NCBI GenBank assembly: GCA_020849895.1
Contig: JADZFN010000012.1
Location: 7,258-71,257 of the forward strand
From: Verrucomicrobiia bacterium
GTDB lineage: Bacteria > Verrucomicrobiota > Verrucomicrobiia > JABWAM01
Reading direction: 5' to 3'
DNA: 64,000 nt
Position numbers and translations under genes: made by a program. Below the pieces are notes generated by a model, which saw only the letters and a program-made list of their open reading frames with translations, was not told the origin of the DNA and did not search any database. How positions within the stretch are numbered: the stretch's first letter is position 1; the number at the start of each line of letters is the position of its first letter. This document shows, piece after piece, positions 1,379-38,274 of this stretch.

Positions 1379-4005
1379 TCGCCATGGCCCCGACATCCTC
1401 AGGGTCCGCTGCGCCCGCGGCTTTGCGCGCGGGAGGCCTGTGGACCGCGGAGGTCCGATTCTGGCTGGCCCAGGAACCGTACTCCCCCGCGCACGCGCCG
1501 CACACCCGTTCCCGATGGTCCACCCGCGTCCGCTTCGCGGGGAGCGCGTCCGAGTGGCGCTTTGAGTTTGAGTGTCGCGCCGATCCGCCCGGGAAGGAGG
1601 CGCCGATCCGTCCCCTCGGCGACCCCGACGTGTGGCAGGGGGAATACGTGGAGGTCTTCATGCCCTGCGGTGAAGAGGGGGAATGCCTCCATCTGAGCGT
1701 GACGCGCTCCGGGTTGGCGATCAGCGAGCGCCACGACAAGCGGCGCGACCCGATCCCCGGCTGGCGGGGGACCGCCCGTGAGGTGAAGGACGGCTGGCGC
1801 GCCGAGATCGTCGTTCCGCGGGGTGCGCCGGGCCTCCCCGGGAAATTCCGTCTCGTGCGCTGGGTGCCGGGCGAGGGGCTTACCCGGTGGCCGACCCCGT
1901 TCGGTTCGTGGTGGCTCGTCGCCCCGCCGGATTTCCTTGAGGTCACCGGGGCAGGCGCCGCGCCCGCGCCCTCGGAGGACGAGATCGGGAAGTTCATCCG
2001 CGAACGCGAGCGGGGCCTTTTCGTTTCCGCCGGTCTCCCCGTGCCGGGAGAGGTCGCGGATCTCGGCTTCCTGGATCCGGTTCCCGCGGGGGAAGGGGGG
2101 TTTCTCCGGACGTTCCAGTTGCGCGCGGAAAAGAATCCGTGGCTGGGTTTCGACCTGCTTCCGCCGGCAAACATGGTGCATGCCCGCGACATGCTGGGGA
2201 ACCGCTTTTGGTATCACGACGCCTCCGTCCAGATGAGGGCGCCGTTCGACTGGGACACGGGCAGGGGCGACCCGTTCGTGATGGTCCACCTGACGCGTTT
2301 CGATTTCCTCGCGGACCTCGTGGCCGCGTGGCGTGAGACCGGCGACCTTGCCTTCGCCCGCAAGGCCATCGAGTGCGTCGCGACGTGGCTGGAGCGCCAC
2401 GACCTTCGCCAGTACCTGACGCCGGCGCGCTACCGCGCGCGTTGGAGCTGGCTGAACCTCCCTCATCGGCTCGTCTGCATGATGCAGACCGTGGGTTCGC
2501 TCGCCGGGACCGGCCTCGTCGGGGAGGGCCTTCTCCTGCGGCTTTACCAGGCCGTGGCGGGGGCGCTCCAGGTCCTCGATGGCAGCATGATGGCCCGGCA
2601 CTACAACAAGAACCACAGCCTGATCATCGCGGACCACGGGGTTGTGCTGTCGGTCCTCTGCTCGGAACTCCGCTGCGCGGCGCCGATGCGCGAGCGGTAC
2701 TTCGAGCATTTCCGCCGCTCCCTCGGGGTCCAGTTCCTTCCGGACGGTGTCCAGTGGGAGCTTTCGACGATCTACCACATGATCTGCTACCAGCGGCTGA
2801 CCGAGGCCACGTCGATGTGCGAGAAGGCCGGGATCCCCGTTCCTCCCGACCTCACCGGGTGGCGGCGCCGGATCATGACGGTGGGAGCGCGCTACCTCAC
2901 GCCGCACGGGCGGGTCTTCAACTTCAACGATGGAGGCATGCCGGGCACCGTGGACGCCATCGGCCGCCCCGACGACACCTTCGTCAGCCTGATCCTGCGG
3001 GAGGGCCCGTCCCTCGATGCGAACGAGGCGTTGGCCCTCGCCACGAACGGGCGGCAGGGAGCGATCTTTCCTCCTTACAGCCACGCGATGCCCTGGGCCG
3101 GGCACTTCATCCTGCGCGACGGCCCGGGGCCGGAGAGCACGGGCCTGGCGTTCGACGCCGGGCCGCTCGGCATGGGACACGCTCACGAGGACGCGCTCAC
3201 CCTCACGATGACCTCCTTCGGGAAGACGCTCCTCGCGGACCTCGGTTCGGGCGCCTACGACAACACCCTTCCCATGCGCGGCTACAGCATGTCCACCGAG
3301 GGACATTCGACGATCTGCGTGGACGGCTGCGGGCAGGCGGGCGCATGGTTCCCCGAGACCTGGAGCCGCAAGACTTCGCTCGAGGGGCGTCACTGGTTCG
3401 GTCGCGCCGTTCAGTTCGTGGCCGGGGAGTACGGCCTTGGGTACGGGGACGAGGGGGCGGTTCGCGTGGAGCATCGCCGCGCGGTCCTCCTCGTGAACGG
3501 GGCGTACGTGGTGGTCTTCGACCGGCTCCTCGGGGAAGGGGAGCACCTCCTTGAGTCGCGCTTCGTGTTCAACGCGCTTCCCTGGCGCGAGACCGAACGC
3601 GGCCTGCGGACGACCAGCGGCACCGGCGACCTCGACGTGCGGGCGATCTGGCCCGTCGCCCTCGCGAGGGAGGTGGCCTGTGGGCAGGAGAAGCCGTTCG
3701 CGGGCTGGGTGATCCGCGGCCTCTACGGGCAGGAACCCGCCCCGCGACTCACTTTCTCGGCGAAGGTGCCGCTCCCCGCCTGTTGGGTCACCCTCCTCAC
3801 GCCGTTCCGCGACGCCGCGGAGATCCCCGAGGTCGCGGCGGAGAAGCACCGCGATGAAATCAGGGTTCGCCTGGCGACCGCGCGTTCAACCGCGTTGCTC
3901 GTGGTGCGTGAGGACCCGTTCAAGGTTGATTTCGAGAATGAGCGGGTGACGTTTTCTGCCGCGGCCGGCGCGGGCGGGAAGTTTGCGTTCCGGGAGGAGG
4001 AGTAA
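1375..4005 (+). CDS. heparinase II/III-like family protein (putative polysaccharide lyase)
   Basis: 876-aa frame with the Hepar_II_III core motif GHAHEDALTLTMTSFGKTLLADLG and NFNDGGMPG. The GTG at 1375 (or ATG at 1384) overlaps the upstream stop. The TAA stop overlaps the next ATG (TAATG at 4003-4007). The opposite-strand 816-aa ORF is Arg/Gly-rich shadow. Confidence 0.7.
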   Translation: MIAMAPTSSGSAAPAALRAGGLWTAEVRFWLAQEPYSPAHAPHTRSRWSTRVRFAGSASEWRFEFECRADPPGKEAPIRPLGDPDVWQGEYVEVFMPCGEEGECLHLSVTRSGLAISERHDKRRDPIPGWRGTAREVKDGWRAEIVVPRGAPGLPGKFRLVRWVPGEGLTRWPTPFGSWWLVAPPDFLEVTGAGAAPAPSEDEIGKFIRERERGLFVSAGLPVPGEVADLGFLDPVPAGEGGFLRTFQLRAEKNPWLGFDLLPPANMVHARDMLGNRFWYHDASVQMRAPFDWDTGRGDPFVMVHLTRFDFLADLVAAWRETGDLAFARKAIECVATWLERHDLRQYLTPARYRARWSWLNLPHRLVCMMQTVGSLAGTGLVGEGLLLRLYQAVAGALQVLDGSMMARHYNKNHSLIIADHGVVLSVLCSELRCAAPMRERYFEHFRRSLGVQFLPDGVQWELSTIYHMICYQRLTEATSMCEKAGIPVPPDLTGWRRRIMTVGARYLTPHGRVFNFNDGGMPGTVDAIGRPDDTFVSLILREGPSLDANEALALATNGRQGAIFPPYSHAMPWAGHFILRDGPGPESTGLAFDAGPLGMGHAHEDALTLTMTSFGKTLLADLGSGAYDNTLPMRGYSMSTEGHSTICVDGCGQAGAWFPETWSRKTSLEGRHWFGRAVQFVAGEYGLGYGDEGAVRVEHRRAVLLVNGAYVVVFDRLLGEGEHLLESRFVFNALPWRETERGLRTTSGTGDLDVRAIWPVALAREVACGQEKPFAGWVIRGLYGQEPAPRLTFSAKVPLPACWVTLLTPFRDAAEIPEVAAEKHRDEIRVRLATARSTALLVVREDPFKVDFENERVTFSAAAGAGGKFAFREEE

Positions 4006-5549
4006 TGACTTCTGCTCTCCCCGTGATTCCCGTTCGGCGCGGCCCGCACCGAATCTGCTCTGATCAAATCAACGTGCCACGCCCCATGAACCCCAACCCG
4101 CCGCTTCTCATCCTCTCCCCGGCCTCTCCGACCGCTGCCTACACCCAGTACATTCGCCAGTTCGTGGATGTTGGCGTTCACTTTCCCTTCGCTGACGACT
4201 ACGCGTTGCCGCGCGGGCTGCCGTCGGACCTCGCGGGAATCCGGTGCGTGGTGATCGATCCGGCGCGGCGTGAGGAGTTTTCGCAGGGGCCGCTTGCGGC
4301 CCGGTTGATCGAGTTCGAGCGCGGCGGGGGCCACCTCTTCTGGCCCGACCCGAACACTCCCACCGGGGGAGCGACGGGCGACCTCATCGTCCGACATTCG
4401 GTCGCGCGCATCATCAACACCGCGGGCCTGCCCATGGGCGACCCGGCGATGATCGCGCGTTTGCAGGAGGTGGACGACGCGTTCCTGGTGGGCGCCTGCA
4501 AGGGTTCAACCGCGGACGAACTGGGCCAGTACGTGCGGATGAGGCACTATTTTCCGGAGCCCGTGGGCATGTGGGCGATGCCGACCGCGATCGAGGCCGC
4601 AGAGTTCTTTGGTGAACCGGCGCTTGCCGACCCGGTCTGGGCACATATCGCCGCGTATTACCCGCAGTGCGACCATCAACCCGACCGCCATGGCACCCAG
4701 CATTTCCTCGATTACGCGGAGAAGACCGGTGACCGGAAGCCCCTGGAGCATCTCGTCGCCGTTTGTCGAGCGTCGAACCCCTGGCCACGGCTCTGGCGGA
4801 AGGGAGACGTTTTCCTCAACTGCGACCTGCACGTGCCGGATGGCGCCGACGCGGACCATCCCCCGGAGATCGTCCTCCGCAACGCGTGGGTCTGGCCCGA
4901 GACCAACCTTTGGATCGGAGAGACGTATGCGACCGTGTCCCGCTTTACGGGGGAGGCGCGCTGGCTCGACCGCGCGGTGGCTCACGTGCTCGAGGCGCAC
5001 CGGTGGCTTTTCGAGCCGAAAACCGCCCTGTACTGGCACGTCGGACGGCCGGGCGGCCCGGACCTTCGTTCCGCGCCGTGGGCGCGAGGCGACTCTCATT
5101 TCCTTTGGGGCGTGCGCTCGATGCTGAACCTCATGCCGGAGGAGCATCCGAAGCGGCGAGACCTCTGCGGCCTGCTGGGCGACCACCTCGAGGGGTTGCT
5201 GCGCGTCCAGGGCGCCGACGGCCTGTGGCTCAACGTGCTCGATGCCTCCCCGTCGGATAGTCGGCCGTGCTCGTCGGCCTCCTCGCAATTCGTCCGCATC
5301 TACGCGCGGGCATACGCGAGGGGATGGCTCCGCGACGAGCGGATCCCGCCGATGGTGGAGCGCGCGTGGAAGGGCCTGAAGACGAAGATCTGGGACGGAC
5401 GCTTCCTTGCGTGGTGCGTGGGGACGTCGCACGGCCTCAACCGCCAAGTGTACCTGTCGCGGCCGCACGATTCCATGCGCTGCTGCCGCTCCGCGATCCT
5501 CTCCGCGTGGATGGAGATCCAGAAGATGCGCGGGGTGACGAAGGGATGA
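4005..5549 (+). CDS. glycoside hydrolase family 88/105-like protein (unsaturated uronyl hydrolase fold, PF07470-like)
   Basis: 514-aa frame. W-A-R-G-x-x-H-x-x-W-G (PWARGDSHFLWGV) and the LWLNVLD block resemble the (alpha/alpha)6 unsaturated glucuronyl/rhamnogalacturonyl hydrolases. Translationally coupled to the upstream lyase. Confidence 0.5.
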   Translation: MTSALPVIPVRRGPHRICSDQINVPRPMNPNPPLLILSPASPTAAYTQYIRQFVDVGVHFPFADDYALPRGLPSDLAGIRCVVIDPARREEFSQGPLAARLIEFERGGGHLFWPDPNTPTGGATGDLIVRHSVARIINTAGLPMGDPAMIARLQEVDDAFLVGACKGSTADELGQYVRMRHYFPEPVGMWAMPTAIEAAEFFGEPALADPVWAHIAAYYPQCDHQPDRHGTQHFLDYAEKTGDRKPLEHLVAVCRASNPWPRLWRKGDVFLNCDLHVPDGADADHPPEIVLRNAWVWPETNLWIGETYATVSRFTGEARWLDRAVAHVLEAHRWLFEPKTALYWHVGRPGGPDLRSAPWARGDSHFLWGVRSMLNLMPEEHPKRRDLCGLLGDHLEGLLRVQGADGLWLNVLDASPSDSRPCSSASSQFVRIYARAYARGWLRDERIPPMVERAWKGLKTKIWDGRFLAWCVGTSHGLNRQVYLSRPHDSMRCCRSAILSAWMEIQKMRGVTKG

Positions 5550-19345: not shown

Positions 19346-22300
19346 CTATCGGACCCGGATCAACCGTCGTCCATTGGCCAAGGCCTCCTCGGTGAAGGAT
19401 GTCGTGATCCCCCCGGTCTCGTCGATGACCGAGCTCGCGGCCTTCCAGGTAGCGCCCTCGTCGGCGGAGACCTCCACTTGTCTTCCCGGGAGGGTGAGGG
19501 TGCAGGCCGCGTTCGCACGGAGCTCGAAGACACCCGGGCCCCGCGCGTCGAGGCGCCGCAGGAAAAGGTGCGCGGCGACTGAAACCCGGTCGCCGGGGCC
19601 CTGGTCGTGGAAAACCACCATACGGCGTCCATCCCCGTCGGAATCCGGCAGGTCCGCCTCCTGGAGTTTGCGGCCTTCCACGCGCAGCCGGTAGGTGTCA
19701 CCCGGCATGTCGACGGTCCACTCGCGATCCCCCCGCTCGTTGCGGACAAGTTGCTGGTGGTAGGGCCAGCCGGGGTGCGGATCATTGGACGCGTCGAGGT
19801 ACTCTCGGGGGTGCTGGCGGGTGAAGAACATCAGGCCGTCCTCGCGGATCCGGGTGACCTCGAGATCGAGCATCTTCTCGCCGGGCTGGACCTCCACGAG
19901 GGTCTTGCCATCCGGCGCAAACTTGCGCTGCTTTTCCGTCGCAATCATGGCCAAGGTCAACTTGCCGTCCCCGTTGGCGTCCGTCACGTCCTGCTGCAAG
20001 AGGGTGTTCTGGTGGCGTCGTGCCGCGGGCCATCCGGTGTAGAAGAACCGGTCGCCGAGGGTGACCGAGACGCGGCCGATCGCTTTTCCCGCCTCGTTGA
20101 CCGCGGTCGTTCCCTCATACGCCTCGGGGTGATAGCTGTGCAGGTACGGGGGAACATCCAGCTCGGCGAACCCCTCCTTCGCGTCCAGGCGTCCCACACC
20201 GCCCTGGTAGACGGCCGAGGGGCGGTCGAACTCCAAGCGCGTGCCGTTGATGCGGGCCGCTTTCCGCGTGGTCTGGTGGCGGGGGTTGGCCACCTCAAGG
20301 ATCTCGCCATCGAGCAGCCGGGCCGGCCACGCGTCGCTCAGGGTGGCGATCCGTCCGCCGTCCGTCGTCGCCCTGATCTCCGAGCGGTATTCCGCCCGCG
20401 CGAGCCTCGCGGAAATCCCGGAGTGGGAGACCTCCGTCCCTCCCACGAGGCCGAGCAGCCGCAACCCTCGGGCATCCCGGGAGATGAACGCGAGATTTCC
20501 AGAAGCCCGCGCGTTTCCTTCGATCGCAGCGGACTTCGTGCGATCCGGGCCGGAGAAGAGAAGGTCGGTCTGACCGAACGCGGTCTTCACCTCGATCGCG
20601 ACGGCCCGGGTGGCGCCCTCGCCCGCGTTCTCAACCTTCAACTGTCTCACCGAGGTCACAAAGGGCTGGCCCGCGTACGGTTCGATCACCGAGGGATAGA
20701 CCGAGCCCGAGACCTCCGCACCGTCGCGGCGCACGTAAAGGAACGGAAAATTGTAGAAGCGCGAATCCATTTTCTTCGCGTACCAGTTGGCCACCATCAC
20801 CTTCTCCCCGCCGTGGCCGAGGAGGTGGACCTTCGTGAATTTCTCGGGGGCGGCCGGGTCGTACGATTTCCCGGACATCGCTCGCTCGGCGTTGCCCAGC
20901 TTGATCCCGTTCACGACCTCTTCCTTGCGCCGCAGTTTCCAGGTCGCCTCCAGCACCTCGGGGGCGACCCCCTCCCTTGCAGTGCCCTCGAGGTGCTCCT
21001 TCAGGTAGCGCTGGGCGACCCCACTCGTCGCCGGCGCCAGTCCGGCGTTGCTGGTGAACTCCTCCGAGACACACCCGTGGAAACACCAGGTGTGCGTCCT
21101 TCCGCCCCGGACGCGGAAGACATCGAACAGGTAGCCGCTGGGGGTTCTCTCCCTTCCGTTTCCCGGGTCGCACATCACCTGCAGCACGCCGCGTGCGTAG
21201 AGAGAGACCTGCGGGTGCGTCTCGGCCCTGGCCCCGCCGAGCACGTACTGCGCGCCCGGCAGTGGTTTGAAGGCGTCCAGCCACCCGAGGGCGGTCGTGT
21301 TCTGCGGCCCGCCGGAGAAATCCTGCTCGTCCACCTGGACGACGTTGTGCACGTACGAACTCATGCACGACGGGTGGCCGTACCGCCCAAGATGCCGACC
21401 TCCAAGATCGCTGCTCATTCGGAAACCGTGCGCGTATACCTCCAGGTCAAGGGTGTCGGGGTGCGCGTGCCCCGAACCGATTCCAAAGCGCAGCATCGCC
21501 GCGTTCTTGTGCCGCAGGTCCTCCGCGTCGGAGCCTTCCTCCAGCACGGCGATCCCGAAACCCTCGAGGACCCGGCTCGCGGCGTGGCGGACCGGGTCTC
21601 GTCCTGCCTGCGCAGCCTTCACGATCTGCTGCCATTCCGCGTCCGGGCAGGCGCCCTGGCCCATTTGGTTCGCAAGCACCCAGGCGATCCGCGGGTCTTT
21701 CGTCCATTCCCAGCTTCGGAGGAAGTACTCGCGCCACGCGGGGTCGTACATGAGCTTCGGGGCGAGGGTCGGCGTACCTACGTCGCCCACGCCCGCCGCA
21801 TGCCCGCCGGCCACGTGCAGCCCGAGGATCGAGGCCGCCTGCGCGGCGAGTTGCGGGAAGCGGGACGGGTTGACCACGTCGAAGCGCTTGTCCCCGCCCG
21901 CCGAGACGTGGCGGGCCAGCAAGTCCGCCACCTCGAAGAGTTCGTCCTTCGACTCGAAAGGGGCGTAGTAAGTCGAGCCGATGTAGTTCAGGCCGTCGCG
22001 GCTGTAGTTCCCCACCACGCTGTCGGGAAAACCGCAGAGAGTGTTGCGCAAGTAGATGCGTCGGAAGTATCCGTCAAGGATCCGCGTGCTGACTTCGTTC
22101 GGGCCAAGCACGGCCGCCGAGACGGGGACCACGGTCTGCGCGTAGAAGACGTGCTGCACGCCGTCCTGCGCCCCGCGCTGCACCAGGAAGGTGTCCAGCA
22201 GGCGAATGACGTCTTCCGGCGACCTCACCCAGGGGATGAACCGCCCCAGGCGCGCGGCGAGCTCGGCGTTTCCCTGGATGTAGGGGAAGAGCTTGTCGTA

Positions 22301-23626
22301 AGCGTGGCAGAGCCGGACATACTCGGGGCCGCTCCATTGCCCCGCGGGGCCGCGACCACCCTCGCCCGCCCTGAAGGCCCGTCCAGGGTAGTAGATGTTC
22401 TCCACCGCGTGCAGCTTGTAGTCGTAGCCGGGAAACCGGTACGCGACCGCGGCCAGAAGGAACGCGGCGTCCGCCGCGGCCCCGAGGTCGTCATAGAGCA
22501 GGTAGCGGTCCGCAAGGGAGGGCTTCTCGGGATCGCCGCCGCACAACGCCCCCATCATCGCGGCGTATCGGCTGCCGATATGGCGCGGAAGGATACCGTA
22601 GTTGAACGAGGCCTCGAGGCCGGTCTTCTCTTTCTCGTAGAAGAAACCGCCGCCGTCTTCCGGAAAGGGCCAGGGCGCGGGCAGCGGGCGGCCCGCGCGG
22701 TAATCCGCCATCGTGTATCCCAACGCGAGGGTGCGGTTGGTGAGCGTGCCCGGCTGATCCCAGACCGCGCCATGGGCGCTCACCCAGTTGCCGAGGGGCT
22801 TCCCAAGGACTTTCTCCTGATGGGAGATCGCCTGCTTGAGCATGTCCGACGCCTTCGGCGCGCATATATCGAGGAGGTAGTAGTTCCCGCAATTCGCGTT
22901 GATGGGCATCAGCGACTCGTTCCAGATCACCCGGTCGCGCGCCGCACGCACTTCCATCGAAAGGGGCGCGGACTGGACCGGCGCGTGGACCCTTCCCCCT
23001 TTCGCGGCAGTCGCCCGAAGCTGTTGGATTTCCTCGGGCGTGGAGAGCGTACGGCGGTTCTTGAGCGCGCGGAACGCGAAGTTCGCAAGAGGGTTGCGCA
23101 ACTCCACGCGGTCGACCACCAACTCGCGGATCCGTCCGCGCGGGCCAAGATAGATTTCGGCAGAGTAGCCCCGCTCCTCGGGCGTGTGGAAGTAGATGCG
23201 GGCGACGTGCTCGTACAGGCCGCGTTCGGGGAGCGGCACGCGAAGCCGGTACTCCTCCGCCCCGCCCCCGGGGGCGCTGTTCACCTTCAGGTGGAGGTAG
23301 AGCGGCACGGCCTCCCGCGTGCCCGGTCCCGCCACAAACGGGTCGGGACCGCCAAGCCGGGCGGCAACATGCACACTGTGCATCCCCACGGGCAGGCGGC
23401 CAAGTTCGAGCCTGAAGCCCGAGCCTTCCCCCGCGAGGAGCACGGCCTTGCCTCCGCTGGCGGCCCGATCGTCGATAACCCTGGCCGCGCCCAGCGCCGG
23501 GAGGGTTTCCGCCTCGAACGACCGAACCAAGGGGTCCGGCTCGAGCACCTGGGTCAGCGTGTCGAGGTGGGCGAACGCCGTCGGGACAGCGAGCAGGCAG
23601 GCAAGCGGAACAGCGGGGAGCCTCAT
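19346..23626 (-). CDS. large secreted heparinase II/III-like family protein (putative polysaccharide lyase, 1426 aa)
   Basis: Signal peptide MRLPAVPLACLLAVPTAFA. Hepar_II_III core IGSGHAHPDTLDLEVYAHGFRMSSDLGG. Its ATG overlaps the upstream stop (ATGA). The antisense 1435-aa ORF is shadow. Confidence 0.65.
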   Translation of the reverse strand: MRLPAVPLACLLAVPTAFAHLDTLTQVLEPDPLVRSFEAETLPALGAARVIDDRAASGGKAVLLAGEGSGFRLELGRLPVGMHSVHVAARLGGPDPFVAGPGTREAVPLYLHLKVNSAPGGGAEEYRLRVPLPERGLYEHVARIYFHTPEERGYSAEIYLGPRGRIRELVVDRVELRNPLANFAFRALKNRRTLSTPEEIQQLRATAAKGGRVHAPVQSAPLSMEVRAARDRVIWNESLMPINANCGNYYLLDICAPKASDMLKQAISHQEKVLGKPLGNWVSAHGAVWDQPGTLTNRTLALGYTMADYRAGRPLPAPWPFPEDGGGFFYEKEKTGLEASFNYGILPRHIGSRYAAMMGALCGGDPEKPSLADRYLLYDDLGAAADAAFLLAAVAYRFPGYDYKLHAVENIYYPGRAFRAGEGGRGPAGQWSGPEYVRLCHAYDKLFPYIQGNAELAARLGRFIPWVRSPEDVIRLLDTFLVQRGAQDGVQHVFYAQTVVPVSAAVLGPNEVSTRILDGYFRRIYLRNTLCGFPDSVVGNYSRDGLNYIGSTYYAPFESKDELFEVADLLARHVSAGGDKRFDVVNPSRFPQLAAQAASILGLHVAGGHAAGVGDVGTPTLAPKLMYDPAWREYFLRSWEWTKDPRIAWVLANQMGQGACPDAEWQQIVKAAQAGRDPVRHAASRVLEGFGIAVLEEGSDAEDLRHKNAAMLRFGIGSGHAHPDTLDLEVYAHGFRMSSDLGGRHLGRYGHPSCMSSYVHNVVQVDEQDFSGGPQNTTALGWLDAFKPLPGAQYVLGGARAETHPQVSLYARGVLQVMCDPGNGRERTPSGYLFDVFRVRGGRTHTWCFHGCVSEEFTSNAGLAPATSGVAQRYLKEHLEGTAREGVAPEVLEATWKLRRKEEVVNGIKLGNAERAMSGKSYDPAAPEKFTKVHLLGHGGEKVMVANWYAKKMDSRFYNFPFLYVRRDGAEVSGSVYPSVIEPYAGQPFVTSVRQLKVENAGEGATRAVAIEVKTAFGQTDLLFSGPDRTKSAAIEGNARASGNLAFISRDARGLRLLGLVGGTEVSHSGISARLARAEYRSEIRATTDGGRIATLSDAWPARLLDGEILEVANPRHQTTRKAARINGTRLEFDRPSAVYQGGVGRLDAKEGFAELDVPPYLHSYHPEAYEGTTAVNEAGKAIGRVSVTLGDRFFYTGWPAARRHQNTLLQQDVTDANGDGKLTLAMIATEKQRKFAPDGKTLVEVQPGEKMLDLEVTRIREDGLMFFTRQHPREYLDASNDPHPGWPYHQQLVRNERGDREWTVDMPGDTYRLRVEGRKLQEADLPDSDGDGRRMVVFHDQGPGDRVSVAAHLFLRRLDARGPGVFELRANAACTLTLPGRQVEVSADEGATWKAASSVIDETGGITTSFTEEALANGRRLIRVR

Positions 23627-30568: not shown

Positions 30569-30706
30569 AAACCCGGGTCGCTTGCCCCAGAATGCGCGCC
30601 TTCGCAGGCCTCGACCCGGTCCGCCCCACACCCCATGCGCTACATCTGGATTTGCATCATTGACGGCTGCATCGTCCGTTCGGGCGCGGTGCAGGCCGGG
30701 GAAACC

Positions 30707-31339
30707 ATGCCCAAGCTTATCGAGCGGATCTCACGCCACTTGCCGCACATGGCTTCCGACTCGATGAAGGTCGTCGGCGAAGACGGCAAGGTCTACGACA
30801 GCCACGCCTGGTTCCCCGGTCCCGCCCCCGAAACGCCCGGTGCCCCGCCCGAAACCGAACTGATCGCCGCCGGCGTCGTCGAATCGTTTTTCGGAGTCAA
30901 ACTCCATCACGGGGCAACCCCCGAAGACGTGATCCAGGCGGAAGCCCAATCCTTCAGCGGACGCATTGACGACATGGTGGATTTCGGTGTGTTCGATTTC
31001 TCCGGCGAACAGCTTGCTTCAATCGAGGACATGGTGGCTTACGTTCAGCAGACGGAACCCGACAAGGCGCCCGATTACGTGGACGAATCGAAAGGCCCGC
31101 CGCACGAAGGCGAAGGCGGCGATGGCAGACGCCGCCGGGGACGAAACCGTCAACGCGGGCACCGGAACCGTCGCGATTTCCGCCGCCGGGGAAACGGCGG
31201 CGGAGCTCCTGAGGGGCCGAAAACCCAAGGGACGAAGGATCCCGAAACGCCGGCGCCTTCGGGAGGCGATGCCCCGCCGGCATCGCCGGACGTCGGCAAC
31301 GCCCCGCCTCCTCCTCCCACGCCACCCGCAACGGCCTGA
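30707..31339 (+). CDS. hypothetical protein with acidic N-domain and Arg/Gly-rich C-tail
   Basis: Strong GC3 codon bias from the ATG at 30707 (MPKLIERISRHL...). C-terminal RRRRGRNRQRGHRNRRDFRRRGNGGG. No recognised family. Confidence 0.45.
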   Translation: MPKLIERISRHLPHMASDSMKVVGEDGKVYDSHAWFPGPAPETPGAPPETELIAAGVVESFFGVKLHHGATPEDVIQAEAQSFSGRIDDMVDFGVFDFSGEQLASIEDMVAYVQQTEPDKAPDYVDESKGPPHEGEGGDGRRRRGRNRQRGHRNRRDFRRRGNGGGAPEGPKTQGTKDPETPAPSGGDAPPASPDVGNAPPPPPTPPATA

Positions 31340-31415: not shown

Positions 31416-33731
31416 CTATTTCTTCTCCGCCGGCTGAGCGGAGACACAGCGGAACCCGATCTGGCGGCTGCGCTTAAGAGGCGAGTTGCGCAGATCGCGC
31501 AGATCCAGGCGAACGTCCTTCGACGCCCAGGAACCGCCCCGGACGACCGGCACTTTCGAGGTGGGAAAGTCGGGATTGAAGTCGAAGGAATCCGTCCACT
31601 CGCTCACGTTGCCGGCCATCTCCATCACTCCATACCAGCTCCGGTCGCTCCGCACCGCGCCCACGGGCGCCCACAGGCTGAATCCATCCTTCTGGCCGGA
31701 GGAAGGATCGCCGGGGCCGTCTTCGAGATCGGCGCCGGTGTTGGCGAATTTCGCGCTGAATTCGTTGCCCCAAGGATAACGGTTGCCCTGAGGGCCGCGC
31801 GCCGCCTTTTCCCATTCCTCCTCGGTCGGGAGCCGTTTGCCGGCCCATCGCGCGTAGGCCCACGCGTCGTAATAATCCACATCAAAGACCGGGGTGTTCA
31901 CGAAGACGCGCACGCCGCGATAGAGTTTTCCTTGCTGAACGCCTTCTGTCCAGACGGAACCCCATTCAGGCGGGGTATGGTCCTTGTTTTTTCGGGCGTC
32001 GGGATGTTCCTGAATCGCCGCACGATTCTTTGCGCACGCCTCAAGGAACTTCGCGTATTGGCCGAGAGTGACCTCGTATTTATCCATCCAAAACGAGGGA
32101 AGGACCTTTTTCTGCTGTTCTTGATACACGAACTCTCCGCCCTTAATTTCCACGGTGGCGTCGAGATCCTTGGCGCCTGCGTTCTTGAAGCGCAGCGAGG
32201 TATACCAAAGCGTCCCGTAAAGCAGCGCACCGGCCGCAACCGCGCCCGCCGCCCACAGCATCCACGGCTTCACGACCTTTTTCTCCTCGGGCACGATCAC
32301 GCGGCTGGCGGCGAGAGGGCGCACCACCCGCATCGCGCGGCGGCGCAAATCCAGCTGATGCCCTTCATGCAGCAAGGCGTCCCACGCAGCGAACCCTCCC
32401 TCTCCGGCGCGGTCCATTCGTTCGAGGAGACTCTGAAACTCCACGCTGGCCGTCGCGGCGCCCTCCATCGCCTCGCGGAGAATTCTCGCGAGGCGCTTCA
32501 TCTCGTCATATTCGCCCGATGAGACCTCTCCGTCTTCGAGAGTCACGTTGTTGAGGAGCTTCGGCACTCCGACGTTCGGCATGAGGATCTGCTCCATGCT
32601 GAGCGGGGTGTGCAGGATTCCGTTCTTCTTCTCGTAATTGAGCGCCTCACTGATGTTGAGGAGGACGCGAAGGGCGAGCTCTTCGGCGAGCACCTGGCCC
32701 TGCTGGCAACGGTCGTGAAGGTTGGCGCCGTCGAGATATTCGCGCGCGTAAAAATAAAGCCCGTTGCTCTCCCCCGCTTCGTAGACCGCCGTGATGTAGG
32801 GATTCTGCGCCCGTGCCATCGCCGCGGTGAAGGCGACAAACTGCTGAACCTGCTGGGGGTCCTCGTAAAACGCGGGCTGAAGGATCTTCAGCGCAACCGT
32901 GCGGTTTACGGCAATCTGCGTGGCCTCGTAGAGCGTCCCCCAATAATCCGTCGCAAGACGTTTTCGGACGCGGAACGGGCCGACCATGCGTCCGATCAGC
33001 TGTTCGCCCAAAGCCTCCTTCCTCAGGTCGCTCGCCTCATCTTCGCCGCGTTCGTCGCGCCGGCGGGCGCCTTCCATGAGCAGGTGCTCCCAACCCGCGC
33101 TGACCGTAAGCTTCGGGGCGCCGACGCCCTCTTCCAACGCAACCTCCGCGCCGTCCCATCCCAGCATTTCGTAGACCGCCTCCTCCCCTTCGAGCCCGGG
33201 GATCGCGGCGTGCGCCACCGTGCCGCCATGGATGTAGACCGCGCCTTCCTGACTGCCCGCCACAACGCGCAAACAGCCCGTCTTCTGGCTGATGCAGCAC
33301 ATCTGGATCAGGTCTGCGAGCTTGAACGCCGCCACGACTCCGGCGGCCGCCGGCGCCGACGCAGGCGCCCTCTCCCCCGCTCCCGTCGGAGATGGGAGAA
33401 AAGGCGCGGCAGCGACGGGCGTCAATGGCGCGGGCATCAGATCCGCTGCGCCAAAGGCGCGCACGGCGGTGGCCTCTTCCGGCGCGGGGTCCTCGACATA
33501 GCCCACGAGGCGCACCGAGGGAAAATTCGCGGCGACCGCGCCGCACACCTGCGCGCTCCATTCTCCGTCGCGCGCGTGACGGAAGAAAAGCGCGTCGCAC
33601 GACGCGGCTTCCAACGCCACAAAGGCCGCCTCGAGGGTTGCGGCCCCCGCGGCGTCGAACCCCGCTTCGCGAAAGGCCTTTTCGAGGTTCGCTGCGGATT
33701 CCGGTTGCGGGTCGAGGATGACGATTCTCAT
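31416..33731 (-). CDS. multidomain signalling protein: REC-like / DUF4388 / degenerate Ser-Thr kinase domain / TM / FGE-sulfatase (SUMF1-like) domain
   Basis: N-terminus MRIVILDPQ..SCDALFF (receiver-like). DUF4388 block LADLIQMCCISQKTGCLRVV. Kinase subdomain II VALKIL but the catalytic loop is replaced by ILHTPLSMEQ (pseudokinase). TM segment KPWMLWAAGAVAAGALLYGTLWY. C-terminal RGGSWASKDVRLDLRDLRNSPLKRSRQIGFRCV is classic FGE-sulfatase. Confidence 0.7.
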   Translation of the reverse strand: MRIVILDPQPESAANLEKAFREAGFDAAGAATLEAAFVALEAASCDALFFRHARDGEWSAQVCGAVAANFPSVRLVGYVEDPAPEEATAVRAFGAADLMPAPLTPVAAAPFLPSPTGAGERAPASAPAAAGVVAAFKLADLIQMCCISQKTGCLRVVAGSQEGAVYIHGGTVAHAAIPGLEGEEAVYEMLGWDGAEVALEEGVGAPKLTVSAGWEHLLMEGARRRDERGEDEASDLRKEALGEQLIGRMVGPFRVRKRLATDYWGTLYEATQIAVNRTVALKILQPAFYEDPQQVQQFVAFTAAMARAQNPYITAVYEAGESNGLYFYAREYLDGANLHDRCQQGQVLAEELALRVLLNISEALNYEKKNGILHTPLSMEQILMPNVGVPKLLNNVTLEDGEVSSGEYDEMKRLARILREAMEGAATASVEFQSLLERMDRAGEGGFAAWDALLHEGHQLDLRRRAMRVVRPLAASRVIVPEEKKVVKPWMLWAAGAVAAGALLYGTLWYTSLRFKNAGAKDLDATVEIKGGEFVYQEQQKKVLPSFWMDKYEVTLGQYAKFLEACAKNRAAIQEHPDARKNKDHTPPEWGSVWTEGVQQGKLYRGVRVFVNTPVFDVDYYDAWAYARWAGKRLPTEEEWEKAARGPQGNRYPWGNEFSAKFANTGADLEDGPGDPSSGQKDGFSLWAPVGAVRSDRSWYGVMEMAGNVSEWTDSFDFNPDFPTSKVPVVRGGSWASKDVRLDLRDLRNSPLKRSRQIGFRCVSAQPAEKK

Positions 33732-33753
33732 GATCGGCAGTCGCGGTTTCTCC

Positions 33754-34878
33754 TCACTCCATCCCCGTCTCGCGCGCAAGCGACGGCGAATCCGCGTAGC
33801 GATCGTTCAATTCGCCATGGAAGTAAAGCTTCGCCACAATTCCACAGTAGGAGTATGCGGTTCCTGATCGCATCGTCTTTCCCCGAAAGTATCCGCGCGG
33901 CACGGAGTAATTCAAGGAAAGCGTCTGGCGTTCTCCCGCGATCCATTCCCGCCGCGGCTGAAGCTTGAAGGGAAGCCCCGGCGCTTCCACCCGGACGGGG
34001 CGGAAAATTCCGTCCGCTCCGCGCGTCTGATCGTAGAACGCCACCTCGAGGCGGACGCCCGAAAGTTCCACTGTGCCGAGGAAACCTTCCGAGTCGAGGG
34101 TGAACTCGAGGCGAAACCTCAGGTCGTACAAATCCTCGAGCGGGAGATCCACGCGCGCGACTCTTGCGATGCGAAGGCGCGCCGCGGACGCGACCGGCGC
34201 AGCGGCATCCAGCAAGCCCGGAACCGGTGTTAGAACGATCGGCTTGTCGCCCGCCTTGCGAATCGCGTCGTCCACGCCGGCGAGCCGCTTCAGGTTCGAC
34301 TGAATCTCCGCGGCCGCGGCGGGATCCCCGCCCGCGACCGATCCGGCTTTCTCCCATAAAAATCGTGCTTGGGAAGCCAACCCCTGATCTTCGTAAAGAG
34401 GCGCGAGGCGTCGGATGGCGGGCAGATAGCCCGGCGCCCGGCGGAGCGCAGCCTCGAACGCCTCCGCCGCCGGCTGACGCAGTCCCGACTGAAGCAGGGC
34501 CTCGCCCCGCTGTTGAAACGCCGCCGCATCCTTCTCGGCGGCGCCCTGGAGCGAAGCCGACTGCTGCTCCTGGAGCCGCGCGCGTGCGCGTTCGCGCTCC
34601 GCGCGCTCCATGGCCCGCGTCACGTCGTCCTGCACCGGGCGACGCGCCTCGCGCCGCGCCTGCTCGGCGCGCTGAAGCCCGAGGGTGTCGTTCACCGATT
34701 CCGTCGAACGCACCGTTTCGAATTCCGAAAAGACGACGGGGTCGAAACGATGCCCGAAGGCCGTGCGCGACCAGAACACCGAGAGGAGGGCGGCGGCCTG
34801 CAGGAGCAGAATCGCGCCAACCAACGTCCCGACGCCGATCAGAACGGGCGAGGGCTTTCCCGGTTTTTCCTCGGACAT
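33754..34878 (-). CDS. hypothetical single-pass membrane protein with coiled-coil/TPR-like periplasmic region
   Basis: TM segment PVLIGVGTLVGAILLLQAAALLSVFW near the N-terminus, protein-like composition. Lies between pilT and the kinase-FGE gene with 22-25-nt spacers. Confidence 0.5.
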   Translation of the reverse strand: MSEEKPGKPSPVLIGVGTLVGAILLLQAAALLSVFWSRTAFGHRFDPVVFSEFETVRSTESVNDTLGLQRAEQARREARRPVQDDVTRAMERAERERARARLQEQQSASLQGAAEKDAAAFQQRGEALLQSGLRQPAAEAFEAALRRAPGYLPAIRRLAPLYEDQGLASQARFLWEKAGSVAGGDPAAAAEIQSNLKRLAGVDDAIRKAGDKPIVLTPVPGLLDAAAPVASAARLRIARVARVDLPLEDLYDLRFRLEFTLDSEGFLGTVELSGVRLEVAFYDQTRGADGIFRPVRVEAPGLPFKLQPRREWIAGERQTLSLNYSVPRGYFRGKTMRSGTAYSYCGIVAKLYFHGELNDRYADSPSLARETGME

Positions 34879-34903
34879 GACGTGGCCCGTCCGTATCCCC
34901 GCC

Positions 34904-35995
34904 TCAGCCGATGATCCGGCGGGATTCGTCGAGGAAGATTCCCTTCAGGTTCATCTTCAACTGGTCGGGGTTCGAGGACTTGGCGATCCCGTCTTCTTCG
35001 CTGACCAGCCCCGCCTTGATCAGCTTGTAGATGGACTGGTTGAAGGACTGCATCCCGTCCTCGCCTCCGCTTTCGATCGCGGCGGGGATCTTCTCGAGCT
35101 TTCCTTCTTCGAGAAGCTTGCGGACCATCGGGGCGTCGAGGAGGATCTCGACCGCCGGCACCGCGCCCCCCCCCTTGCCGGGAATCATCCGCTGGCAGAT
35201 CACCGCCCGGAGACTGTTTCCGAGCGCCCGAAGGACGGCGATGCGGTCCTCCTGAGGGAAGAAATCGAGGATGCGTGTGATCGTCTGGGCGGCGTTGTTC
35301 GAGTGGACGGTGCTCATCACGAGGTGTCCGGTCTCGGCGGCGGTCACCGCAGCGGCAAAGCTTTCCGCGTCGCGCATCTCCCCCACCATGATGATGTCGG
35401 GATCCTGGCGCAGGACGTTTTTCAGCGCGTGATGGAACGAGAGCGTGTCGAGCCCGATCTCTCTCTGGTTGATCACACACTGGCGATCCTCGAACACATA
35501 TTCGATGGGATCCTCCAGCGTGATGATGTGACAGCGGTCGTGCGCGTTCACGTATTCGATCATGCAGGCCAGCGTGGTGGACTTGCCGCTGCCGGTCGCG
35601 CCCGCGACCAGGACGATCCCCCGCTCGCTCATCGCGAGCCGCTGGATGATCGCAGGCAGGTTCAGCGTCGCGAAGTCGGGCACCTTCCCTTTCACGTGCC
35701 GCATCGCAATATTCACCAATCCGCGCTGCTTGTAGACGTTGGTGCGGAAACGCCCGATCGCCGGAGAAAAATAGGAAAAATCCACCTCATGCTCCTTCTC
35801 GAACCTCGGCCTCAGGAACTCGGGGATGATCAGCGACGCGATCTGAACCATGTCCATGTCCGTCGGAGGTTCCGCCTCGACAGGCAACAACTGCGCCGAC
35901 ACCCGCAGGATCGGGGCCTTGTTCGCCTTGAGATGAATGTCCGACGCCCCAAGGTTCACCGCGTAGCGCAGGATTCCGTCGAGATAATCCTTCAT
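34904..35995 (-). CDS. pilT: type IV pilus retraction ATPase PilT/PilU family
   Basis: Walker A GATGSGKSTT, Asp-box, Walker B and His-box (TVHSNNAAQ) of the PilT subfamily. 363 aa. Confidence 0.85.
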   Translation of the reverse strand: MKDYLDGILRYAVNLGASDIHLKANKAPILRVSAQLLPVEAEPPTDMDMVQIASLIIPEFLRPRFEKEHEVDFSYFSPAIGRFRTNVYKQRGLVNIAMRHVKGKVPDFATLNLPAIIQRLAMSERGIVLVAGATGSGKSTTLACMIEYVNAHDRCHIITLEDPIEYVFEDRQCVINQREIGLDTLSFHHALKNVLRQDPDIIMVGEMRDAESFAAAVTAAETGHLVMSTVHSNNAAQTITRILDFFPQEDRIAVLRALGNSLRAVICQRMIPGKGGGAVPAVEILLDAPMVRKLLEEGKLEKIPAAIESGGEDGMQSFNQSIYKLIKAGLVSEEDGIAKSSNPDQLKMNLKGIFLDESRRIIG

Positions 35996-36029
35996 GAGAT
36001 TCCTGGACTTGATCGTCCGGGCGCGGAGG

Positions 36030-36872
36030 CTAGCGGGACGATGGGAGCACGCGCTCGCCCGATTCTTGCAGGAGGCGAAGGGCCTTTCGAATTTTCTCCG
36101 TCAAATCCGCCTTTGCACGAAGGCGCGCGGTGAAGGCGTCCTGCGCTCCGGCGACGACGGCAGCCTCCGCCTTTTCGCGTGCCACGTCCACCTGTTCGGC
36201 GGCCAAAGCGAGCTCGGCATCCGGCTCGATATACGCCCGCCGGACGACGAAATGGATCAGGGCCGAAAGCCGTCCGGGGCTTGCCGAAAGGCTGTCGCGC
36301 TCTCCGGCCACGTAGCTTTCCCATTCCCGCTGGGCGGCGGCGTCCTCTCCCAGGCGGAGCCGGCGCGCCACCTCATCGAAATCCGCCAGCGTGCCGGGTC
36401 CGATTTTTAGCTCGCGCGCGGCGTAGATGACGAGCGGCGTCGCAGGGGAACCCGCAGCCTCCGTCGGGCGTGCGAGGCCTGCGGGCGACGGAGGAGGCGC
36501 TTCGCGAGACGGCGCTGCCGCAAGTTTCGGCGGCGGCAGCGTCGCTCGCGGCAGAGTCGCGGTCTCGTGAGCCGGAGGCGGCGCGGGGCTTCGCCCGGCC
36601 TCCATCGCAGCCAAAGAATTCGCCGGGGCCGGCACCGCGCCGGGACGCAACACCTGCTGAAGCTCCTTCATGCGGCGAACCTTGTCGCGGAGCGCGCGCC
36701 GAAGCATCGCCTGCTGCGATGCAGCGCCGGGGTCCGCGAGGCGGACTTCCAATTCGCTGACCTCGACGCGCAGCCGTTCGAGTTCGTCGGAGGGCGATTC
36801 GGCATGCACGCGAGAAGGCGCCAGCGTCAGCCCGCCCGCGACCAGCAGCGAAAGAAGGAGGTTTCGTTTCAC
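36030..36872 (-). CDS. hypothetical secreted protein (signal peptide, coiled coil, Pro-rich linker)
   Basis: Best start is the GTG at 36872, giving VKRNLLLSLLVAGGLTLAPSRVHA as the signal peptide. The track start at 36920 would overlap leuC by 23 nt. Confidence 0.45.
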   Translation of the reverse strand: MKRNLLLSLLVAGGLTLAPSRVHAESPSDELERLRVEVSELEVRLADPGAASQQAMLRRALRDKVRRMKELQQVLRPGAVPAPANSLAAMEAGRSPAPPPAHETATLPRATLPPPKLAAAPSREAPPPSPAGLARPTEAAGSPATPLVIYAARELKIGPGTLADFDEVARRLRLGEDAAAQREWESYVAGERDSLSASPGRLSALIHFVVRRAYIEPDAELALAAEQVDVAREKAEAAVVAGAQDAFTARLRAKADLTEKIRKALRLLQESGERVLPSSR

Positions 36873-36897: not shown

Positions 36898-38274
36898 TCA
36901 AGAGGAGGGGAGATGCTCACGCGGATCGGTGATTCGCCCGGTCAGCGCCGAAGCCGCCACGGTATAGGGCGAAGCGAGATAGACCTTCGAATCCTTGTGC
37001 CCCATGCGTCCGGGGAAATTGCGGTTGGTGGCGGTGATGCAGTTCATCGGGCGGTTCAGGCGCCCGAACGTGTCCTCCGGCCCGCCGAGGCACGCCGCGC
37101 ACGACGCGTTTTCCGTCATCCGCACTCCGGCTTCCTCCAACACGCGCCATGCGCTTTTCCCGTCCATCTGGAAGACCTGAAGCTCGCGAACCACCTCGGG
37201 CGTCGCGGGCACGCCGAAGGTGTCGATCTTGACGCGCTTTCCTTTCACCACCCGGGCGAAGGCGAGAAAATCACTCGCCTTGCCGCCCGTGCAGGAACCG
37301 ATATAGGCGCGGTCGAGGGCGATGTCCCCGCAATCGCGCGCGAGGGCGCGCTGCCCGGGATCGGGATGTTTCGCGACGGTCGGCTCGATCTTCGAAAGGT
37401 CGAAGGTTTTGTCGTAGACGAACTTCTGCTCGCGATCGGCCTCCACGGGTTCGTAGGCGGCGCGTGTCCCGTTGGCGCGGATGCGCGCGTCCACGTAAGC
37501 CTTCGTCTTGGCGTCGAATTCGAAGATGCCGTTCTTGCCGCCGGCTTCAATCGCCATATTGGCGATCGTCATGCGGTCGTCCATGGAGAGAGACCGGGCG
37601 CCTTCGCCGTCGAACTGCATCGCGCGATACGTCGCCCCGTCGAACCCGATCTCCCCGATCACATGGAGGATCGCGTCCTTGGCCATCACCCCGAAGGGGA
37701 GCGCGCCTTCCAAGCGAAACCGCATCGTCTCGGGCACTTTCAAGAGGAGTTTGCCCGTGCCCATCACGAAGCCGGCGTCGGTATTTCCAATGCCGGTGGC
37801 GAAGAGGTTGAACGCCCCCGCCATGCAGGTATGCGAGTCGGTGCCGAGGAGCACTTCGCCGGGGCGGGTGTGCCCCTTTGCGGCGAGCGCGGTATGGCAG
37901 ACGCCTGCAAATGCGTCGCCGTATTGCCGCTTGAGCTGCCCCTTGGCCGCATCGAACTTCCAGACGCTTTTCGGATCGTCAATCACATCGTAGAACCAAC
38001 GGATCCCCTGCTCGCGCACGAACTCCCGCAGGAGATCCACGTTGCGGTTCGAACGCGAATCGGCCGTGAAGATGTAGTGGTCCGGGATGATCACGATGCG
38101 CGAGGCGTCCCAAACCTTCGCATCCCGGCCGAACTCGCGGTGGAAAACGCCGATGGTCCCCGGGCCGCACACGTCGTGAGTCATCAATACGTCCACCTGC
38201 ACCCAGACGTTTTCGCCAGGCGCTACGCGCATCTTCCCGCCCGCGCGGGCGAGCAGTTTTTCCGTAAGCGTCAT
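36898..38274 (-). CDS. leuC: 3-isopropylmalate dehydratase large subunit (aconitase family, LeuC/HACN type)
   Basis: Aconitase-family Fe-S ligands and substrate blocks (GSCTGGKASDF, NASCAACLGG, NRNFPGRMG). 458 aa. Confidence 0.8.
   Translation of the reverse strand: MTLTEKLLARAGGKMRVAPGENVWVQVDVLMTHDVCGPGTIGVFHREFGRDAKVWDASRIVIIPDHYIFTADSRSNRNVDLLREFVREQGIRWFYDVIDDPKSVWKFDAAKGQLKRQYGDAFAGVCHTALAAKGHTRPGEVLLGTDSHTCMAGAFNLFATGIGNTDAGFVMGTGKLLLKVPETMRFRLEGALPFGVMAKDAILHVIGEIGFDGATYRAMQFDGEGARSLSMDDRMTIANMAIEAGGKNGIFEFDAKTKAYVDARIRANGTRAAYEPVEADREQKFVYDKTFDLSKIEPTVAKHPDPGQRALARDCGDIALDRAYIGSCTGGKASDFLAFARVVKGKRVKIDTFGVPATPEVVRELQVFQMDGKSAWRVLEEAGVRMTENASCAACLGGPEDTFGRLNRPMNCITATNRNFPGRMGHKDSKVYLASPYTVAASALTGRITDPREHLPSS

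Follow-up and report, generated by a model that had tools for sequence, protein, structure and literature searches.

A membrane protein with pseudo-receiver, PATAN, pseudokinase and FGE-fold domains encoded beside pilT in a Verrucomicrobiia bacterium: a putative type IV pilus motor adaptor

Among the described systems closest to the one considered here are the PatA-type response regulators of cyanobacteria, such as PixG, PixE, LsiR and PilG of Synechocystis, whose output domain, PATAN, acts at the inner membrane and binds PilB1 and PilC's N-terminal domain; PATAN localises to the membrane, and PATAN alone reverses phototaxis (Han et al., bioRxiv 10.1101/2021.06.11.447907). PATAN genes have repeatedly been found near mglA and mglB (bioRxiv 10.1101/2021.06.11.447907; PMC4316618), an association that, according to PMC4316618, had been noted earlier by Makarova et al. 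2006. The subject of the present analysis is a stretch of 64,000 nucleotides (nt) from a Verrucomicrobiia bacterium (assembly GCA_020849895.1, contig JADZFN010000012.1, positions 7,258 to 71,257; hereafter the window), and within it a gene on the minus strand whose 771-amino-acid (aa) product joins a receiver-like domain, a PATAN domain, a kinase fold, a predicted transmembrane (TM) helix and an ectodomain of the FGE-sulfatase fold. This gene stands in one run with pilT and with ORF-C, the gene of a putative single-pass TPR protein, and the conservation of that neighbourhood in relatives, where it extends to pilB, mglA and mglB, suggests that the two proteins may together form an adaptor of the type IV pilus (T4P) motor.

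The window protein is like the PatA-type regulators in having PATAN joined to a receiver-type domain and in its genetic tie to T4P motors. It differs from them in several respects: the order of its domains is reversed (receiver, then PATAN), the acceptor Asp is lost, the protein is integral to the membrane and adds a pseudokinase and an FGE-fold ectodomain, and there is no chemosensory (CheA/MCP) context. The likeness to Myxococcus xanthus, with its MglA, MglB and PATAN proteins such as SgnC, lies in the relatives of the window cluster, which encode genuine MglA and MglB beside pilB and pilT, whereas the window has neither mglA nor mglB in its 64 kb, and PATAN proteins from Myxococcus have not been described as pseudokinases of the membrane. 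The predicted topology, in which a single TM helix separates a kinase fold in the cytoplasm from an FGE domain outside it, is that of the Hanks-type receptor kinases with FGE-sulfatase ectodomains (such as the 'Proteo1' family, bioRxiv 10.1101/2025.01.12.632604), but the kinase of the window protein is dead and is preceded by a pseudo-receiver and PATAN. In keeping the fold while losing the catalytic residues it recalls bacterial and eukaryotic pseudokinase scaffolds such as the MviN pseudokinase domain and receptor pseudokinases like EphB6, for which a scaffolding or allosteric role is presumed, though in a different domain context. An FGE fold without catalytic cysteines is also found in SUMF2 (pFGE) and in PorK/GldK, where it is a structural periplasmic element of a motility or secretion machine; the likeness to PorK/GldK is at the level of the domain only, the window protein being TM-anchored and not a lipoprotein, in the context of a pilus and not of type IX secretion. 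PATAN pilus regulators, the association of PATAN with MglAB, kinase–FGE-sulfatase receptors and bacterial pseudokinases are each already known singly. Our searches of the literature on DUF4388 with PilT, PATAN with pseudokinase, FGE-sulfatase with pseudokinase and Verrucomicrobia with MglA found no description of the fusion or of its pilT/pilB/mglAB locus, and an atlas of bacterial Ser/Thr kinases has seven pseudokinase families, none described with this architecture, and does not mention Verrucomicrobia (bioRxiv 10.1101/2025.01.12.632604).

Some 20 proteins that are 43-75% identical to the 771-aa protein make up what we call the inner clade. In eight distinct loci (the window, L081/L082, the P0007 locus, L083=L094, L084, the P0018 locus, L087 and L093) pilT, ORF-C and the big gene follow one another, with a PilT of 363-371 aa upstream of ORF-C. 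The genes upstream of pilT vary (leuC/ORF-A, a Complex1_51K gene, a TAL_FSA gene on the opposite strand, an AAA ATPase gene), so it is the trio of pilT, ORF-C and the big gene as such that has been preserved. PilT of the window is 70-91% identical to the PilT proteins of the relatives' clusters, over a range in which the big protein falls to 43-51%. Fortuitous adjacency of pilT and the big gene was entertained as an explanation and is ruled out by the conserved synteny.

Beyond the big gene, the cluster continues in seven loci (P0007, L083/L094, L084, P0018, L087, L091 and L093) with a gene for a TPR and MshEN protein and then pilB. Six of the seven add an unannotated protein and mglA, the contig of L093 ending within pilB, and mglB (Roadblock/LC7) is also present in five (P0007, L083, L084, L087 and L091); at the P0018 locus the contig ends within the gene that comes after mglA. 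The relatives' PilB scores 641 bits to TIGR02538, and the MglA of L083 scores 239 bits to M. xanthus MglA (PDB 5ymx); overlaps of 4 nt occur in relatives at the junction of ORF-C and the big gene as well as at that of the MshEN gene and pilB. Because the relatives' cluster goes on with pilB, mglA and mglB, its theme would be control or placement of the whole motor and not retraction specifically.

The first-pass annotation, made from the letters of the window, had described a tight minus-strand run following leuC, which the junction sequences bear out (spacers of 25, 34, 25 and 22 nt in gene order), and had asked whether the pilT neighbourhood is conserved, as it proves to be in the eight inner-clade loci. 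Its proposal of a coupling specifically to the retraction ATPase fares less well, given the added pilB, mglA and mglB and the fact that PilB and PilC are the partners shown for PATAN; the ligand-regulated twitching or surface sensing that it suggested keeps the rank of a hypothesis.

A separate observation (L083 12338-14949; also L084, L087, L091 and L093) concerns the TPR and MshEN protein, whose gene overlaps pilB by 4 nt. The relatives' PilB scores 35.7 bits on an MshE-type motif for binding of cyclic di-GMP, just below the cutoff of 38. From their sequences, the MshEN protein and this sub-threshold match hint at a cyclic di-GMP input to the locus.

The inner clade is rare: it accounts for five of the 80 loci listed from 241 million metagenome records, and the cytoplasmic part of the protein was matched by 44 representatives at E<=1e-30 in a library of 1.84 billion proteins. 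One metagenomic protein, P0131 (672 aa), has an inner-clade-like pseudokinase and FGE domain (47% identity, an NNVT motif and a non-acidic receiver) with PATAN entirely absent.

The anatomy of the 771-aa protein was drawn from Pfam matches, alignments and an AlphaFold2 (AF2) model built with 20 homologues (mean pLDDT, the predicted local distance difference test score, 81.6; predicted TM-score, pTM, 0.39). At the N-terminus the model predicts the elements of a receiver in the proper alternation (E2-6 H10-22 E26-30 H33-42 E47-51 H57-69 E74-79 H84-92 E97-100 H105-111, where E is strand and H is helix; pLDDT ~82-89), followed by a disordered linker. The window protein gives no match to Pfam REC at E<=0.01, and PF00072 (REC) is matched by its homologues P0006, P0012, P0021 and P0022. 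Arg51 occupies the phospho-acceptor position that closes beta3, the acidic pair after beta1 reads DP for DD, and the conserved Lys before alpha5 is lost, KP having become AP; the acceptor is non-acidic in all 18 of the inner-clade sequences tabulated. PATAN is matched by PF14332 at residues 131-228 with an E of 2.6e-18 and a score of 66.7 bits, where the cutoff is 25, and the model has a compact domain at 138-231. It is the only domain of the protein with a known output role.

The kinase domain is matched by Pfam Pkinase at residues 265-392 (39.3 bits against a cutoff of 31.7), and in the AF2 model (253-468) the fold is two-lobed and complete, including the C-lobe. When the full 771-aa model was searched with Foldseek all matches were kinases, those to PknB and PknA having target-normalised TM-scores of 0.59-0.69 over ~250-270 columns. 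A HMMER alignment to pneumococcal StkP shows how far the active site has gone: the Gly loop reads ATDYWGTL for GRGGMADV of StkP, the alphaC Glu is Phe, the catalytic loop reads HTPLSMEQ for HRDLKPQN, with catalytic Asp, Lys and Asn all lost, and DFG is replaced by N-NV. The beta3 lysine (Lys282) is kept, VAVK of StkP being VALK here. The HRD loop is degenerate in all inner-clade members tabulated.

The TM helix is of moderate hydrophobicity, below a Kyte-Doolittle filter of KD>1.6, and its assignment comes from the AF2 helix together with domain logic; the FGE domain that follows is presumed periplasmic from topology logic alone. That domain is matched strongly by PF03781 (residues 524-763, E 5.8e-46, 157.7 bits), with an FGE fold at 526-765 in the model, and its PDB matches include SUMF1, SUMF2 and CalU17, with CalU17 and SUMF2 at the top of the solved structures. 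SUMF2 is a non-catalytic paralogue of FGE. In the alignment to SUMF1 (2aft) the catalytic-Cys segment reads GGSWASKD, with Ser at the position of C336 and C341 falling in a 5-residue gap of the query; the only cysteines in the domain are C566 and C762. To judge from their sequences, the receiver, the kinase and the FGE fold are all catalytically disabled versions.

The domain architecture set out in the first-pass annotation (a receiver-like N-terminus, DUF4388, kinase, TM helix and FGE-sulfatase domain) was recovered throughout, the receiver from the AF2 fold, and so was its view of the kinase as a pseudokinase that keeps VALK and has HTPLSMEQ for HRDLKPxN, a degeneracy now seen family-wide. 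An intact kinase and an unconserved gene order had been named there as grounds for giving up the proposed link to pilT; the catalytic motifs are lost and the order is conserved. What it missed is that DUF4388 is PATAN, that the receiver is dead at Arg51 and that the FGE domain is without catalytic cysteines.

PilT itself keeps its catalytic motifs. It scores 413.7 bits to TIGR01420 against a cutoff of 319.1, and its best solved relatives are the PilT proteins of Aquifex (310 bits), Geobacter, Thermus and Pseudomonas, which together span 284-310 bits; PilU scores 282 bits. Aligned with the Aquifex protein, the Walker A (GATGSGKST), Asp box (ITLEDPIEYVF), Walker B (DPDIIMVGEMRD) and His box (ETGHLVMSTVHSN) motifs are seen to be intact. 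The position of AIRNLIRE, which we take to be the C-terminal motif of P. aeruginosa PilT used to tell PilT from PilU, reads MVRKLLEE in the window protein, with three of eight residues identical and conservative changes besides. In two Nitrospiraceae metagenome-assembled genomes (MAGs; L059 10001-13545 and L069 10001-13120) an unrelated FGE-sulfatase-domain gene lies convergent to two ATPase genes, a pilT homologue (~43% identical to PilT of the window) and a further one of the PilB/PilT type; the arrangement may be a coincidence.

ORF-C is the obligate partner gene upstream of the big protein. Its AF2 model (pLDDT 73.6) has an N-terminal TM helix (11-40), a juxtamembrane stretch, a long helix and, at the C-terminus, a beta-sandwich (234-362); residues 134-208 make up a TPR region, and the only Pfam match is a sub-threshold one to TPR. 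Positive charge is higher on the N-terminal side of the TM helix in ORF-C homologues, and the bulk of ORF-C therefore probably lies in the periplasm, on the same side as the FGE domain. The juxtamembrane segment FGHRFDPVVFSEFETVRSTESVN (residues 41-68; window 34675-34756) is among the best conserved parts of the protein, with the strongly conserved consensus FGxRFDPVxFSEFETVRSTESVN, and is modelled as disordered (pLDDT <50); it may be the place where the FGE ectodomain or some other partner binds. The beta-sandwich bears an invariant motif, QTLSLNYSVPxGY. In a co-receptor complex the ORF-C motif FGxRFDPVxFSEFETVRS or the segment QTLSLNYSVPRGY would be a candidate interface.

A search with a member of the outer clade gave 258 proteins at E<=1e-40, with the architecture REC–PATAN–pseudokinase–FGE (~800 aa) or REC–pseudokinase–FGE; the few source names given are Chthoniobacterales, Chthoniobacteraceae, Chthoniobacter and Verrucomicrobiales MAGs. 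Every tabulated family member lacks the HRD-Asp, the DFG-Asp or both: among 35 sequences the Asp of the HRD position is kept in one (P0132), DFG in another (P0142) and both in none. The loss being family-wide, the pseudokinase state would therefore be ancient and not a recent decay. The VALK lysine is nearly invariant in the inner and outer clades alike, and no family member has a Cys in the segment of the FGE catalytic cysteines. It is in the receiver that the clades part. Among the tabulated relatives that belong to the outer clade or lack PATAN, a single one has an acceptor other than Asp or Glu, and nearly all outer-clade members tabulated retain the DD pair, the S/T-G-Y motif and KP.

The conserved outer-clade locus consists of an ORF-C-like bitopic gene, the big gene and a gene for a secreted protein of ~310 aa. 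The ORF-C-like genes are matched by the inner-clade ORF-C profile at E 6e-16 to 2e-10; the secreted third partner belongs to no Pfam family, is 33-59% identical among loci and is missing from the inner clade. The surroundings are not pilus-related, with HtrA protease, GH63 glycosidase, amidase and ribosomal genes. Eight outer-clade metagenome loci are likewise without pilT within 10 kb, their PATAN status not having been checked individually. The idea that the presence of PATAN predicts linkage to pilT, to which the PATAN-less loci L002-L008 and L085 without pilT had given rise, was rejected on finding that the PATAN-bearing L088 and L089 have no pilT within 10 kb. Linkage to pilT tracks clade and not domain content, and the pair of ORF-C with the pseudokinase/FGE protein is older and more widespread than that linkage; the tie to pilT first proposed from the window stands for the inner clade and fails for the wider family, where the pair is present without pilT nearby. 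A profile scan of contigs with the full-length alignment returned outer-clade and FGE-only loci, with no inner-clade genomes among the matches listed. One 4.9-kb contig, L008 (CAJCIA010000159.1), carries a REC-pseudokinase-FGE protein of the Verrucomicrobia family and is filed under a Betaproteobacteria MAG, which is probably a binning artefact.

The reading we favour, with moderate confidence, is that the 771-aa protein and ORF-C form an envelope-spanning, phosphorylation-independent adaptor that was recruited to the T4P motor in the inner clade. ORF-C would be the translationally linked partner of the 771-aa protein, and PATAN, held at the membrane by the TM helix, would contact the motor, on the cyanobacterial analogy through PilB, PilC (by its N-terminal domain) or both, and perhaps through PilT as well; by the same analogy it is probably PATAN that connects the protein to the pilus motor, and not the pseudokinase. 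The pseudokinase and pseudo-receiver could serve as dimerisation or allosteric scaffolds, and the FGE-fold ectodomain, with the TPR and beta-sandwich of ORF-C, could bind an envelope or surface cue or anchor the complex at a fixed site in the envelope. Pilus extension and retraction would thereby be biased, either in their location or in whether they occur at all. The ancestor may have been a module of two or three genes that spanned the envelope and whose receiver could be phosphorylated; in one lineage it came to be placed between pilT and pilB/mglAB and lost its secreted partner and its receiver acceptor site. The anatomy, the lost motifs and the conserved gene order are what the data show; the membrane topology, the binding of partners and any sensing we infer. 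It is possible, if doubtful, that a whole class of receptor pseudokinases is represented here, in which the FGE ectodomain and ORF-C as co-receptor would sense a surface or glycan cue, and the dead kinase and receiver would relay a conformational or oligomeric change to a PATAN that gates or positions PilB/PilT, amounting to a phosphorylation-free pathway of surface sensing for twitching in Verrucomicrobia.

Several observations weigh against recruitment of the pair to the pilus motor. In yeast two-hybrid assays neither PilT1 nor PilT2 was bound by the PATAN regulators of Synechocystis (bioRxiv 10.1101/2021.06.11.447907). The sub-lineage of the window, L081 and L090 has no adjacent pilB–mglAB, its cluster ending after the big gene at a convergent 234-aa ORF and bipA, and tblastn found no pilB, mglA or mglB in the 64-kb window. 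The inner-clade locus L092 has, at 1-356, ~290 nt of AT-rich, stop-rich non-coding DNA before the end of the contig instead of pilT, the sole exception to pilT adjacency among the informative inner-clade loci. In the outer clade pilT, pilB and mglAB are absent within 10 kb in all of the at least 13 loci with wide context, PATAN-containing L088 and L089 included; the two-gene core occurs without pilus genes in many Verrucomicrobia, so that belonging to the pilus is no intrinsic property of the module. Finally, the single domains of the AF2 model are trustworthy and their arrangement relative to each other is unreliable (pTM 0.39).

A different explanation is that the module serves Verrucomicrobia as a general signalling device of the envelope or cell surface, its adjacency to pilT being a historical insertion kept in a small clade. 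The outer-clade three-gene loci do occur in unrelated contexts with or without PATAN, and the window lineage has already lost the adjacency of pilB/mglAB. However, it is exactly between pilT and pilB that the module lies, with overlaps or very short spacers, down to 43% identity of the big protein, while PilT stays 70-91% conserved across the same loci; the secreted partner and the acceptor Asp were lost together with the gain of the pilus context, which suggests rewiring and not drift, and the role of PATAN at the pilus motor is documented. We consider a general device with an accidental neighbour unlikely. Somewhat less likely again is that the FGE domain is a structural periplasmic element like the PorK/GldK ring, in which case the protein would be a stator or anchor with a fixed place in the pilus machine. 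Matches of the domain's C-terminal half to GldK/PorK (TIGR03525, E 1.2e-18) and to the PorK structures 9mzu/9ots (E ~7e-10) speak for this, the FGE catalytic residues are absent and ORF-C has protein-interaction modules in its TPR and beta-sandwich, but the GldK score of 67.7 bits is far under the cutoff of 350, CalU17 and SUMF2 and not PorK are the best solved matches, anchoring is by a TM helix with no lipoprotein signal, and the outer-clade module exists without pilus genes. A stator overlaps in any case with the adaptor we favour, the sole difference being whether the ectodomain anchors or senses.

Both of the remaining explanations would give the protein an enzymatic activity. That the kinase is active although atypical, or works as a switch dependent on ATP, and phosphorylates PilT or other motor proteins, seems very improbable to us: the near-invariance of the VALK lysine in both clades, the complete fold with its C-lobe and the binding of nucleotide by some eukaryotic pseudokinases (bioRxiv 10.1101/2025.01.12.632604) are set against the joint loss in the window protein of Gly loop, alphaC Glu, HRD-Asp, catalytic-loop Lys and Asn and DFG-Asp, and against a family in which none of the 35 tabulated sequences keeps both HRD-Asp and DFG. 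We would be equally surprised by an enzyme acting on a periplasmic substrate such as pilin or a sulfatase, as the database name implies. A MAG protein at NCBI (Verrucomicrobiae bacterium) that is identical to the window protein is entered as 'SUMF1/EgtB/PvdO family nonheme iron enzyme', and the FGE-sulfatase Pfam match is strong, yet the FGE Cys pair is absent in every member and the closest solved relatives include SUMF2. The iron ligands of EgtB are carried by a DinB-like domain; the Pfam matches of the 771-aa protein include none to the DinB family, and the 68.7 bits reached with the EgtB/OvoA-type model TIGR03440, whose cutoff is 360, come from the FGE-like part alone.

Coordinates of the window features and, in the last line, of the outer-clade module are collected in the table. 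The run comprises five co-oriented minus-strand ORFs, from LeuC/HacA through ORF-A, PilT and ORF-C to the 771-aa protein. No sigma-70-like sites were detected on the minus strand inside the cluster, and the nearest minus-strand terminator-like sites past the last stop codon lie inside the convergent gene.

Table. Features of the pilT cluster in the window (positions are those of the 64,000-nt stretch) and location of the three-gene module in outer-clade loci
Feature	Position	Strand	Basis or remark
LeuC/HacA-family aconitase-type dehydratase large subunit	36898-38274	-	Pfam Aconitase; NCBIfam NF001614
ORF-A, 280 aa	36030-36872	-	GTG start; no family match
PilT/PilU-family type IVa pilus ATPase, 363 aa	34904-35995	-	TIGR01420
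ORF-C, 374 aa, putative single-pass TPR protein	33754-34878	-	AF2 model; sub-threshold TPR
771-aa protein: pseudo-receiver, PATAN, pseudokinase, TM helix, FGE-fold ectodomain	31416-33731	-	Pfam, AF2, alignments
Receiver-like (beta-alpha)5 fold, residues 1-111	33399-33731	-	AF2 secondary structure, motif table
PATAN (DUF4388 / PatA_N), residues 131-231	33039-33341	-	Pfam PF14332
Pseudokinase, residues 247-468	32328-32993	-	Foldseek, HMMER alignment to StkP
Predicted TM helix, residues 489-515	32187-32267	-	AF2 helix; sequence PWMLWAAGAVAAGALLYGTLWYTSL
FGE-sulfatase-fold domain, residues 524-765	31437-32162	-	Pfam PF03781; presumed periplasmic
Three-gene outer-clade module	L085 8964-13413; L088 8711-13356; L089 4960-9395; also L095-L116		

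The LeuC/HacA gene heads the run and lies outside the conserved module, preceding the cluster in the window and L081 only. It scores 414 bits to NF001614 (cutoff 385) and 382.6 bits to hacA_fam (cutoff 385.7), and by these scores leuC and homoaconitase cannot be distinguished for the large subunit. The gene that follows it after 25 nt is ORF-A and not that of the small subunit (leuD/hacB), an arrangement repeated in L081. ORF-A has an N-terminus, MKRNLLLSLLVAGGLTLAPSRVHA, that resembles a signal peptide and a Pro/Ala-rich middle region; it gave no Pfam or NCBIfam matches and is lineage-specific, the sole homologue detected being that of L081 (53% identity). At the other end, the convergent 234-aa ORF (30635-31339 on the plus strand) has a C-terminal tail rich in Arg, Gly and Pro and no Pfam or NCBIfam match; its position is kept in L081 and L090, with bipA/typA next. 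L081, the closest relative, also has an AbiEi/AbiEii toxin-antitoxin pair (2756-4353) upstream of its aconitase-family gene and, ~8-10 kb downstream of the module (19921-22310), bacterial microcompartment shell genes with acetate kinase.

PATAN domains are the least understood of the widespread T4P regulators, the direct evidence coming almost only from cyanobacterial response regulators. The family described here has its PATAN joined to the membrane and to a domain outside the cytoplasm, with all enzymatic signalling routes disabled and with its gene between pilT and pilB/mglAB. If the adaptor reading is true, it would offer a natural test case for PATAN output without phosphorylation, a bacterial receptor pseudokinase with an identifiable downstream machine, and a first handle on pilus control in Verrucomicrobia, where the regulation of pili is essentially uncharacterised. 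The contrast between the outer clade, with its intact receiver and secreted partner, and the inner clade, with its dead receiver and motor genes, would then be that of a signalling module rewired onto a new output.

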